A DNA stretch of 64,000 bases, from NCBI GenBank assembly GCA_964187785.1, contig OZ076409.1:48734001-48798000 (forward strand), given 5' to 3'. The DNA is from Amphiscolops sp. MND2022. Taxonomy: Eukaryota. The notes under the pieces were generated by a model. That model saw only the letters and a program-made list of their open reading frames with translations. It did not search any database and had not been told where the DNA came from. The translations under genes were made by a program, and so were the position numbers. The stretch's first letter is position 1; every line of letters begins with the position of its first letter. Positions 28,748 through 35,661 of this stretch are shown piece by piece.

Positions 28748-30529
28748 TCTAAGCTCTGGCCCTTTTAAATTCTGGCCTTTTTATAAAATGGCGCGTTTGT
28801 ACATTTTCTAGAGAATGGCGCTTGTCAATTGTCACTACTACTACTGGCGATATCCAAATACTTGGCGATTATTAATACTACTACTACTGGCGATATTTGA
28901 ATTTTGGCGATTATCAATCAGCTAGCATCAAAGTTTGGAAACGTCTAAGGAATAACGTCTAAAGGTGTTCCGGGAATAACGTCCAGAGTAATAACGTCTG
29001 AAGTTCGATGTTTCAAGATACTCAATAAGCATGACATTGCTTTAGATGTTATTCCCGTTTAGCTTTCAGACGTAATTGCGTAGACGTTCCAGCTTTTCCA
29101 TCAAAATCATGAGGATTCAAATGAAAACGTCCAAGGAATAACGTCTAAATTTGTTCCGTAAATAACGTCTCAAGTGATAACGTCTAAAATTCCATGTTTT
29201 AGAGATATTGAATAAGCATGAAATAGCTTTAGACATTTTTCCGTTTTGCATTAAGACGTTTTTCCTTGGACGTTAAAGCTTCTCCGTCAAAAGCATGAAA
29301 AGGTATCTGAGTAGATTTATTCTGATTGAAAGTGAAGATATAGGAATCATATGAATGGGGGATTAACTGAAATCACTGAATTCTTTTTATTGAATGAAAG
29401 TGGAGAAATGGTAATCACATGAAATGGGAACTAAAATGAAATGGGAGTCACGTGGAAACAATGAATTCTTTTCATTGAATGAAAGTGAAAACTTGGTATG
29501 ACATCAAATGGGAACTGAAAATCATATGAGATAGGAATCAATATGGGAATGGAATCGGAATCAATGAAAACACAATGAATGGTTAACAAACAAAACGAAA
29601 ATCAAATGTATTCTCATCACATGAGTCCAGATAAAACTATTGGGCATCATGGACGTAAATATGAACAATACGCAAACTTGATTTTATTGTAAATTCTAGT
29701 TATCATCTGTGGATCAAACTCAATTCCAGAATTTTTCAAGGTTCCAATGATCTCTTCTCGTGACATACCTTTCTGTACATGATAAAATAACTCTTGGGCC
29801 CGCTTCTCCTTCTCACATGGGTCCCGCTTTCTGTGACTCTTCAGAGATTTAATGAACTGTTCCCGTCGTGTGGGATAATTTGATGACTTCGAATAACTCT
29901 TCGGGTTCTCACCTCCGTCATCTCCGTCAAGTTCCTCATCGTCATCACTGGAGCTCCCTGGATGGAACTCAGAGCCACTGGAGTCTGACTGATTTGTTCG
30001 AGGTCGTTTACTGTATTGTAATTAATTTATAACGCACAGAGAAAAAACTCAAAACTGACGTGAAAAGTCAGAAGAAACAGTTTCTTATTTTGACGTTAAA
30101 AATTCGTAGACATGATTTCAATTTCCAACAAATTTGGCAAACTTAAACAAGAACGTACTCTGATTCGGCTGAAATTGCATTTGCCATGGTCTTAGTTTTA
30201 ATCAAACTCAGTCAACCTCATATTCAAACGGTCGTTTGTATTCATCTAGATTAGCGAAAATATGATCAAAAATTGTCTCATTTTCCAAAAATGTTGGAAA
30301 AATTTTCAACGTGAAGTGTATGGAATAAATTAATTACACAGTAGCTCTCTTTTTACGCAGTGGGACAATTTCATTGGATTCACAGGAGTGGGTAGAAGAC
30401 TTCAGTTCCCGTGGGGTTGAACATATTATTCTTCCTGCATGGCGGTGTTTCCGTTGGGGGTTTCCTGCATCTGAAGACGCAAGAGTTTTATCTTTCGATC
30501 CAGGTGTTCCAAGTTGTAATACATGTTTT

Positions 30530-30702
30530 CCATGCTTGGATCCCGCACTTCCAGACTTCGATGCTGGAGTTCCAACTGGTAATCCAGGACTTGCATGCTT
30601 GGATCCCGCACTTCCAGACTTCGATGCTGGAGTTCCAACTGGTAATCCACGACTTGCATGCTTGGATCCCGCACTTCCAGACTTCGATGCTGGAGTTCCA
30701 AC
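30530..30702. repeat. 60-bp coding tandem repeat, ~3 copies (GLPVGTPASKSGSAGSKHAS)
   Basis: Visible in the DNA and in ORF 30334-31185. Confidence 0.92.
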
Positions 30703-32799
30703 TTTTAATCCATGACTTCCAGTTTGTGTTTCAGATGTTTCACCAGAGGAGGCAAGATGCTTCCCAGCAAGGGGTGTTCTTGGAGTAGTTGAAATATTTT
30801 GAAGCGGGGTGATTTTGAAGCCCTCGTCATTTTCAACATTTTGCAGTTTTGATAATTCGCTTAAATAAGTATTAAGCACTTCTCGTCTGTCTTTCGGAAC
30901 GACGTAATTGGCCAGAGCAGTGGCCGCTGTGTGGCCGGTCTGCTGTAAGTGTGAGGTAAATAGGGAATCTTGGTAATTCTTCCTGTTATTATGGAAATGT
31001 GTGTCCCACATTTTACGAATTGCTGTGGCGTGGAAGTCTTTATTAGAAAGATTGGGATCGAATAATTCTGTGAGGACACTTTTTATGTTCTTTGCCATCG
31101 AATGTTCGTACTTGTTGTTGGAAAGACAAGATCTGGTTCTGTCGAAAACTCTTTGACAAAACGACGTTTTAGTCTCTTTAGCCATTTATGTTGGTCGTTT
31201 TCAATTACTATACTGACATCATGAAACCTCCCAGTTTTATGGCGGTCTGTTTTCATCACCCCGTTTTGTTTTATAGACTCGAAATCTTTCCAGGTGAGTT
31301 GTAGGAGTGGTCCTGCCCGACAGTTTAACATAAAGGAAAGCATAAGGAAGTTAAGAGCTGAAAGTTCTTTGTAATAGAGAACCTTCTCCTCGAGATCCTT
31401 GTTAAGGAAATCTTGGACCATGTTATTTAGTCTCTGGACTTCGTCTAGACTAGGGACCTTTGCATAAAGTTCCTTTGATTTACGTCTTTTTTCCTTTTGG
31501 GATCCAATTAGGTATCGGCAGCGGCACTCGTGGAGTATTTTCTCCCAGGGATATTTCTTGAATCCGGGGTATCGGTCTCCGGTATGTAATTCCAAGTATC
31601 GGAAGAATTTACGTAGTTTAAATAAATAATTGGATATCGTAACTCGTTTCAAAATGTGGTCTTGCATGAATTTACGAATACTGTTTGCCAATGCGGTGGT
31701 CTCGTTGAATTCTTTAGTTTCGTAGACAATGTATCCTAAAAATTGGCGAAGTGTGGAAGACATCGTGGACACGGACACAACATCGCCATCATCCATCAAC
31801 CCTTGACAATGGTTGTCAAACTGGATCACAATGTCCTCAAATGGTTTTTGCAGCTTCTCTCGCAGAGTCCTCAAAGCAAGTTGGATCTCAACTGGATATA
31901 ACTTCTCGTCGCATCTGTTGAATATTCTCTCTAATTTCTGATGCTTTGGATGACTGCCTCGAAAGCTCATTCGTTTTAAGCAAGTTGTACATTGGAAGCA
32001 TCTTTTTGTTTTCATTGTCGAATGACAACTCAATATGAATGATTTCACTTTAGGATCCTAGTTCAGTTTGTGTGCGTTCGAAAGGTGGTCGCGCATTTTT
32101 TTCAGCTTTTTTTTACACACCACACATTCCTCAATTTCTGGTCTTTTTGCTTTGTTTGAAGTTTTAACTGTTCTATCTTCCTCGAGTTCATCATCGACAT
32201 CGGATTTTTCCGTTGCGATTGAATCTGTGGACTCGTGATCGGAGACAATTTCTCGAAAGGAAATGCTGGACGTATCCCCATCTCCATTCGAGGCGGAACC
32301 AATTTCACTTCGTGGTGAATTTCTTCGAAAGTGATTTTCTGAGGAAGTGGATCTTGACAGACCTTGAAGAAACGATGAAGCATTGCACTTATGGAGTTTT
32401 CCTACTTGCAAGTTATCTGTGTTGTAGAAGCACCAGCGGCAAACAAAATTGGCTCGGTGTTGCTCTTTAACATGCTTCACAAGGATTGATCTACCTATAG
32501 AAGTGCTCATAAATTTTTCAACACAATGAGGGCAAGTGAGAGGCTCACTACTGTTTTTTGTTATTTTGGCTTTTCTCGACCGACTAAACGACCGATGACG
32601 AAACATTTTGGAAGAGCACTTTTGCTTATGTTGCGATGAATCATGCGACATGAAACCGCAGAAGCACACACTGCATACAAAAGGAAGTTCGGGGTGCTTG
32701 GAGCGCACATGGTGGATCATGTATCTTCGAACGATTCTTTCAGGGCAATGTTTGCAAGGCATTCCAATTGACCTCTGATGTCCTTCAAGGGCAGTTTCT

Positions 32800-34556: not shown

Positions 34557-35246
34557 TATATATATAATATATATAAATTCTAATTTGACCCCTATATGCG
34601 GGCATTGTTTATCACAAGTCAAACAGTAGTCATTTTGTCAAATTTAACAAATTGTAAGGTATTTGTTTAGGTATTCAAACCTTCCACTGTTTTTTATAAT
34701 TCTATCAGTTCAATACAGTTATTTTTGTCATACAAGTTGAAGTTTCCTGTGGACAGATTTCTTGTAACAAAATTTGGACAATCGAATAGAAAATGGGTGG
34801 CAGTTTCTTCAGTTATGCGACAGGAGCACATCGGACTGGCAGTCAAGCTTCTATTATAGGCAAAGTTATTCAGGGATGGATTGATGTCCAGGAGTACTTC
34901 GATGGAGGTCCTCATGAGTTCCTTCTGTAAAGAGAGTTTTATCAAGGCGGGGTCAGTGTCTACTCGAGGAACAATTTTTTTAAGGTTAGTTTCAAAGTCT
35001 GGGTATTGCCATCTGGAATTCCATTGTCGCAGTATATGGGTTCGACTAATGGCTTCATTGTAGCTCAAGGGGTCAGTTAAGTCAAGGTTCTTTTTGTTGT
35101 AGAAAGTTTTCAGTATGTTTCTGTGGAAAGTCACAAAAGTTACAGTTCCTTCACTTTTTATAAATAGCTCTGATAAAAGGTCTCTCTGCTGTAGTACTTT
35201 GGTGAGGAACTTAGCGGATATATTTTGGCAAACAATATCGATAGGT
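34557..35246 (-). mobile_element. 5'-truncated non-LTR retrotransposon (3' end of ORF2 with CCHC finger)
   Basis: SPMCSCRITEETATHFLFDCP zinc knuckle; (TA)n tail at ~34557-34575; 11-bp TSD AGCTTCGGATA at 34546-34556 and 35247-35257. Confidence 0.85.
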
Positions 35247-35661
35247 AGCTTCGGATACAATCCGCAAAAAACTCCTAGGTATTCTTTAGATGTTATTCCT
35301 AGTTTTTTAGTGAAACCATTCTTTTCAAAAAACATGACTGAACTGAAATCGTTTGTAGTTGCAACTGTAAAATGGCGTTGAACGAAATTTTGACTGGCGC
35401 ATTTTAACAGCCCTAGCTGAGAATGTTTGGAGATCGCCAGTAGTAGTTGAAAATTGTCTTTCCAACAAAACGTCAATAAAGTCGACCGAATCAATTTGTT
35501 ATCATCTACTATTATAGTGAAAGTTCGACAGAAATAACAGAAATTTGAAATCCATTGATCACAATTTTTGCTGGCGCTTTTCAGTCCGAGGACCCAAAAA
35601 AATGGCGTTTTTCAACAACTGGCGCTCCCGATAAGGGCTGAATACCGCCAGTCAGGAATAT

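Follow-up and report, generated by a model that had tools for sequence, protein, structure and literature searches.

A decayed SET-tyrosine recombinase transposon bounded by TAC within a microsatellite of a giant transposon in Amphiscolops sp. MND2022

The window considered here is the whole stretch of 64,000 nucleotides of contig OZ076409.1 of Amphiscolops sp. MND2022 (assembly GCA_964187785.1, positions 48,734,001 to 48,798,000). Within it, an open reading frame (ORF) coding for a SET domain runs on the plus strand from 27902 into 82 TAC-phase units (28501-28746, made up of 5 units, CAC, 39 units, TGCTGC and 35 units), is interrupted by an insert, and resumes in frame at 35662, from where it reads TITTTTSSNSQVTETPESPTLF*; six TAC units remain on the right side. 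The insert is a copy of a transposon that encodes a SET domain, C2H2-like zinc fingers and a tyrosine recombinase (YR), hereafter SET-YR. A previous sequence-only reading had proposed that this insert splits the poly-threonine tract of the SET ORF and that the frame is regained beyond it, and both the coordinates and the frame hold. The same reading set the boundaries at 28748 and 35661; the insert is indeed definable, but its exact ends lie at 28747 and 35660, each adjoining a TAC (Table 1).

The split gene belongs to a giant, multi-copy DNA transposon of about 27 kb without the insert, whose copies are 94-98% identical across 16971-51172. Its SET gene gave 40 scored matches out of 186 candidate copies in the genome, and we rejected the possibility that it is a host gene: it is multi-copy cargo of a transposon with terminal inverted repeats (TIRs). 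The threonine codons are simply the microsatellite, located by chance in the tail of this cargo gene, and the outer transposon has thereby spread a landing site of SET-YR elements through the genome. Among 49 copies of the tract, 31 are empty. The other 18 are interrupted by the insert's own family, SET-YR elements from other families (inserted either way round), elements without known coding capacity or rearrangements. The sequence-only reading had looked to uninterrupted copies of the outer SET gene for a decision, and these end as predicted, in T(n)SNSQVTETPESPTLF: among the 20 matching loci inspected, including the window, the exact terminus occurs in three empty alleles (L047, L057 and L059) and a near match in three more (L056, L058 and L062). 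Two further empty alleles were found outside the set of 49 copies (L084, with 5 units, and L283, with 4).

Other copies of the insert share its ends and its preference for TAC. A genome search with the left end (253 bp) scored 40 of 512 candidates, and of these matches 6 are full-length and 34 cover only a 60-bp internal repeat; the right end yielded 13 matches, of which 7 reach the end with at least 92% identity and 6 are diverged or partial. TAC adjoins all six left ends and all seven right ends of these close copies, in one polarity and on the same strand, a result that settles in its favor the point about the flanks of other insert copies on which the sequence-only reading had staked its case. 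Arrays precede the left end in 5/6 cases (24-83 units) and follow the right end in 4/7 (58-239 units). In a second young family, with an ORF of 1384 amino acids (aa), TAC follows 13/13 close right ends and precedes the 12/12 left ends for which the flank is available. Microsatellite targeting as first proposed is therefore upheld as a strong preference for TAC arrays but is not absolute, since two loci of the window family (L067 and L070) sit at only 1-2 TAC units. At two non-array sites the terminal direct repeat is 3 bp (TAC); longer matches within arrays are uninformative. An empty Gypsy allele corresponding to L070 was not found in the window and the fetched loci.

The ends have neither TIRs nor long direct repeats and share only spaced WGGC boxes. 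Across divergent families, a WGGC box stands at offset 10 from the array in 12/17 left-end rows and 8/14 right-end rows, these rows having been chosen for boxes near the array and not for the offset. Among the exceptions, a second box stands at 10 in one left and three right rows, three right rows are displaced by 6 through an imperfect TAC pair, and two left rows without a WGGC box belong to other sequences. The 10-nt spacer between TAC and WGGC varies in sequence, and the first 160 bp of the window element hold a cluster of eight TGGC(G/C) boxes. The inverted subterminal motifs noticed earlier (ACTACTACTACTGGCGAT and ATCGCCAGTAGTAGT) are present; their ACT-containing form, however, is family-specific and lies among many TGGCG boxes, whereas WGGC is conserved. 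What is conserved at the ends is not the ACT repeat but an inverted WGGC box lying 10 nt from TAC, and the joined ends, GCCW-N10-TAC-N10-WGGC, would resemble a recombinase site.

The gene of the element links SET domain, repeat linker, C2H2-like fingers and YR. In the window it is broken by an in-frame stop, a frameshift and damage to the SET domain, and this copy is dead; the 7-bp deletion within the YR is private to it, being absent from the seven other loci aligned there. The open family member P0019 of the protein collection, a SET-to-YR protein of 1086 aa identical over the 418-aa query, agrees with the earlier claim that YR, SET and C2H2 fingers are fused in one gene. A predicted second exon encodes a C-terminal domain that, in four other families (L077, L089, L097 and L095; blastp E 1e-20 to 2e-6), adjoins the YR without a break, and a predicted GT..AG intron (30337-30011) could join it to the YR gene. 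Two subfamilies were recognized, with ends and YR about 96% alike and SET halves sharing 66% protein identity; three central fingers are confined to one of them, and the first three are missing in the L064/L066 subfamily.

The recombinase domain matches Phage_integrase (PF00589) in Pfam with E 8.9e-5, under the cut-off. Its structure model (predicted local distance difference test, pLDDT, 82) has the YR fold, with XerA, lambda Int, Tn1549 Int and Cre as top matches (best E 3e-3, others weaker; probability 1.0). As the sequence-only reading had asserted, the catalytic R, K, R, H and Y are all present, and they are invariant across 17 YR sequences of 31-66% identity; the histidine of HxxR is replaced by Thr or Asn, with R, R and Y plus K and H-III kept. 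A PDB sequence search with the YR returned nothing useful, and word-based protein searches returned 16, 7 and 12 matches, solely unnamed ENA proteins.

Table 1. Positions of the SET-YR copy, its parts and the surrounding outer transposon (coordinates of the window).
Feature	Position	Strand	Remarks
Outer multi-copy TIR DNA transposon	16971..51172	+	~27 kb without insert; 13-bp terminal inverted repeat
Outer SET ORF, 5' part ending in poly-Thr	27902..28746	+	PF00856 E 1.6e-10; best solved relatives KMT5A/SET8
Left (TAC)n array	28501..28746	+	82 units, 3 imperfect; left core formed by the last TAC (28744-28746)
SET-YR transposon copy	28747..35660	-	6914 bp, ~6.2 kb without the nested long interspersed nuclear element (LINE); ends common to other copies, 92-100%
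Left terminal TGGC box	28757..28760	+	10 nt from TAC core; putative recombinase-binding site
Two subterminal ACTACTACTACTGGCGAT motifs	28834..28894	+	at 28834 and 28877, within TGGC(G/C) box cluster
Predicted second exon, C-terminal domain	29647..30010	-	ORF 29647-30021
SET - repeat linker - C2H2-like fingers - YR gene, broken	30337..33551	-	
YR core-binding and catalytic domains	30900..31820	-	NCR 31325, HKT 31241, HATAIR 31032, TGH 30939, ANY 30912
7-bp deletion, frameshift within YR	31110..31125	-	near 31120
In-frame TAG between fingers and YR	32058..32060	-	
C2H2-like zinc-finger patterns	32060..32756	-	starts 32756, 32675, 32534, 32126; regular expression
SET domain	33135..33374	-	ND for NH; motif I damaged
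Nested 5'-truncated LINE fragment	34557..35246	-	TA-rich tail; 11-bp target duplication 34546-34556, 35247-35257
Inverted subterminal motif ATCGCCAGTAGTAGT	35433..35447	-	
Right terminal GCCA box	35647..35650	-	10 nt from TAC core
Right core TAC, remaining tract and outer SET ORF end	35661..35730	+	core 35661-35663; tract TAC TAT TAC4 TAG2

The window family is one of many. A YR domain search of the genome gave 150 scored places among 867 candidates. Several of them have ORFs 1000-1385 codons long, and the copies of one family are nearly identical; besides P0019, open fusion ORFs of 1000-1384 aa occur. Flanks and SET domains were compared in 40 stretches fetched around some 40 of these places. 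Close relatives mostly have (TAC)n on their flanks, with a constant polarity relative to the gene; some distant relatives lie beside AAT/TTA, ATAC or TCTA repeats, which are candidate targets, and some have no repeat within the stretch. A tree of 40 YR segments, built with no outgroup, sets apart a clade of 16 rows (100/99), here clade B, whose SET domain, where recovered, is SUV4-20-like (E 9e-14 to KMT5B) with NH and post-SET cysteines intact in 6/6. Clade A, to which the window family belongs, retains the SET fold with G-x-G, YRG, E(L/F)RY-Y and PW. Of the motifs GxG, YxG, NH and ELxYxY that mark an active SET lysine methyltransferase, 11/11 clade A families keep three along with the fold, and all 11 have ND in place of NH. 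The element's "own methyltransferase" of the sequence-only reading accordingly stands as a SET fold within the fusion, but given the invariant NH-to-ND change its activity is putative. Assignment of the clade A domain to KMT5A was tried and is unsupported, as MLL1, SET8, EZH2 and SETD2 score alike. TAC targets occur with both SET types, and different families are stacked within one array (L094-L096). These comparisons reveal a radiation of SET-YR elements in the genome, within which a single clade bears a different, SUV4-20-like SET.

The SUV4-20-like loci are L098, L099, L103, L104, L107, L109, L112 and L206, and the flanks of this clade include TAC, AAT/TTA, ATAC and TCTA repeats. At L190/L214, the 1384-aa family stands head-to-tail with a 1.4-kb derivative, with two TAC pairs and 9 nt between them. 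The TAC arrays at L198, L203 and L207 harbor additional elements that have recurring ends of their own; no YR or SET match was found in them, and they may be non-autonomous or of another kind.

Taken together, we consider it highly probable that the insert is a decayed copy of a YR DNA transposon that is bounded by TAC, resides mostly in (TAC)n, and likely moves by excision as a circle and re-integration at TAC in fixed polarity. The model draws on observed features, namely the single gene, the TAC repeat, the lack of long terminal repeats, the polarity, the end geometry, the empty alleles and the catalytic residues. The recombinase would bind both WGGC boxes, the ends would be joined across TAC to form a circle carrying GCCW-N10-TAC-N10-WGGC, and this circle would recombine with a target TAC in fixed polarity, long arrays offering more target TACs. 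More speculatively, the SET domain might read or modify chromatin for the element, either to evade silencing or to gain access to targets. Circle excision and TAC insertion are likely by analogy with the biology of Cryptons and Tn1549. Integrases of the Tn1549/Tn916 type, which the window YR matches in fold, act on inverted end-binding sites around a short crossover, as in the ends proposed here; unlike the window element, their carriers are bacterial and conjugative, with loose targets and no chromatin domain.

Several observations weigh against this interpretation. Targeting is leaky, two of eight family loci (L067 and L070) having a mere 1-2 TAC units, and the 3-bp repeat is below the 4-6 bp of Cryptons, its true length being unreadable inside arrays. 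Sequence alone cannot separate a target-site duplication from a crossover core. The end-geometry rows were pre-selected for TGGC boxes near the array, the tetrad histidine is Thr or Asn, the YR scores in Pfam and Foldseek fall below the usual cut-offs, and the clade A SET carries ND for NH in every one of its 11 families.

An entirely different origin, as a YR retrotransposon of the DIRS/Ngaro type or as a LINE-derived insert with a microsatellite tail, would accommodate the LINE-like ORF within the interval (34694-35611), but that ORF is the nested fragment, which has its own target duplication, is present in the window copy only and in no other element copy compared, and has 41 genomic matches, a fuller copy encoding RVT_1 (E 1e-34). 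The element itself has no reverse transcriptase among its own ORFs in Pfam scans, nor any RNase H or gag of DIRS/Ngaro, the nested LINE being the only piece related to reverse transcriptase; it also lacks split terminal repeats and likely has an intron. Arrays lie on both sides of the insert, yet are missing at L067 and L070, and such an origin appears exceedingly improbable. Another view is that the element is an ordinary, catalogued CryptonV, its SET fusion already present in Repbase and its arrays produced by LINE tails and slippage, to which we assign somewhat less than an even chance. CryptonV families, animal YR DNA transposons, are reported to insert into microsatellites, to which some are specific (PMC8869645); recurring flanks resembling LINE 3' ends lie ahead of several TAC arrays (the LINE reading being by eye), and SET-bearing look-alike protein clusters in chordates and molluscs offer a lead only. 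On the other hand, the Repbase report of Kapitonov and Jurka (2012, Repbase Reports 12:2034), as cited in PMC8869645, described CryptonV elements from cnidarians, and slippage alone leaves the 17-30-fold excess of TAC over AAT and AAC unexplained. Neither a SET-YR transposon nor YR-linked repeat expansion is described in the literature searched, whose scope did not extend to Repbase Reports and subscription journals. In the accessible parts of PMC4455052 and PMC5753468, CryptonV is merely listed by name. Compared by description and not by sequence, the element would work like CryptonV; new relative to that mode are its fusion to SET, which exists in two versions, the TAC-N10-WGGC rule for the ends and the array excess, all of which appear in none of the partly accessible accounts found.

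Other known systems share single traits with the element. Cryptons F, S, A and I likewise have only a YR, no TIRs or long direct repeats, a short terminal repeat and a proposed circle, but their direct repeats are 4-6 bp and their partner domains are GCR1_C or C48 peptidase in the text available (PMC3212892). Pfam scans of the element gave no match to DUF3504 (CryptonA) or GCR1_C (CryptonF), and the tetrad R-H-R-Y of Cryptons contrasts with the replaced histidine here. The telomere-targeting YRs of nimaviruses also combine C2H2, SAM-like and YR domains and insert into a simple repeat; likened by description, they differ as genes of 300-400 kb viruses with (TAACC)n as target and no SET reported in the accessible part of the source (PMC10871703). 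SET genes are borne by HarbingerS and MuDR transposons (PMC12730594), and MuTAnT likewise targets microsatellites, which are longer where it has inserted (PMC4486113), but all three have DDE transposases and TIRs, whereas the window element fuses SET to its recombinase. The look-alike clusters found in Atlas are 969-1342 aa long and mostly chordate, with one from a mollusc, a lead from which the SET-YR fusion is probably widespread in animals.

The transposon might, in addition, expand the arrays in which it lives, through circles that carry TAC units or through nicking and unequal exchange, thereby amplifying its own landing pads; we regard this extension as unlikely, albeit worth weighing. 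Overlapping matches to 11 units number 148,530 for TAC, against 7,112 for CAT (the same bases as TAC, reversed), 8,681 for AAT and 5,022 for AAC, an excess in matched positions of 21-, 17- and 30-fold, respectively, among these four trinucleotide classes and with array lengths that depend on the assembly. Array starts are merely about twofold apart (539 for TAC and 247 for CAT, starts after C being missed in both), hence the TAC arrays are much longer. The empty alleles are bimodal, 16 of the 31 having 3-10 units, 15 having 25-434 and none falling between, and all 18 interrupted alleles have at least 17 units even when just the left side is counted (Fisher p 1e-4, the copies not being independent); bimodality would also result from slippage together with a few long master copies. 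Copies identical over 500 bp hold 5, 25, 29 and 130 units, a 26-fold spread, and arrays of more than 1,000 units adjoin element ends; yet of the 30 long arrays that come first on C1, only 9, read by eye, adjoin the end of a YR-encoding family. The TAG at the tract end, 1-2 units, grows to 27-74 beside reverse-orientation inserts (L046/L136, L052/L143 and L061), but it is also expanded where there is no such insert (L047, L203 and L135), and template switching by fold-back at the TAC/TAG palindrome could explain this growth. MuTAnT offers a precedent in its longer repeats at occupied sites. Against expansion stand the absence of an array at L067 and L070, a young insertion in a LINE tail with just 7 and 2-8 units (L295/L190/L214), and an occupied second-tract allele (15+28) within the empty-allele range of 23-97. 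That every insertion adds many units is rejected by L067, L070 and L295. In its boldest form, to which we give equally little credence, the element builds its own safe harbor: visits would turn TAC seeds of 2-5 units into hundreds and so explain the dominance of TAC, and its lineages would have swapped two methyltransferase-type domains.

The second tract belongs to one subfamily of the outer transposon (L081, L084, L125, L129, L217, L262 and L270), is 23-97 units long and is also struck by SET-YR elements; beside it lies a (TAC)4-6 tract that is short in every copy seen. The L262 and L270 arrays, considered as head-to-tail junctions of one family, proved to be this second tract. At L060/L209, the SET-gene tract is directly joined to the flank of the second tract, which suggests that two TAC arrays within a single element have recombined. 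At L201, an ORF for a family-B DNA polymerase (4254-6833; PF03175 E 4e-9), which we take to be possibly Polinton-like, lies 3.5 kb beyond an outer-element TAC tract. Besides SET, the outer transposon has JmjC-like (42724-43251) and BRCT-fused (38092-39708) ORFs, many hairpins and an internal motif in 16-17 copies; a PDB sequence search with its putative transposase gave nothing useful. Three other outer copies with both ends read show a 2-bp target duplication (TT, TT and CT), unlike the window copy, whose flanks, GT and GA, mismatch. Elsewhere, the window holds a duplicated ORF block, Gypsy-like and BEL-like long terminal repeat retrotransposons (labels by eye) and an 84-bp satellite, occupying 385-6300, 6540-15681, 53437-55047 and 55912-62340 as a set.

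Beyond Repbase there is scant description of elements of the CryptonV type, which usually have ends that are difficult to delimit. Exactly mapped ends, empty alleles, open ORFs and copies that are both young and identical make the SET-YR families a test bed for how a eukaryotic YR finds a 3-bp repeat, and their recombinase could serve as a repeat-directed integrase. If the elements do lengthen their targets, this would constitute transposon-driven repeat expansion, for whose study the 49 copies of one tract serve as natural replicates. The fusion of a chromatin enzyme in two SET types points to repeated selection for control of chromatin by the element.

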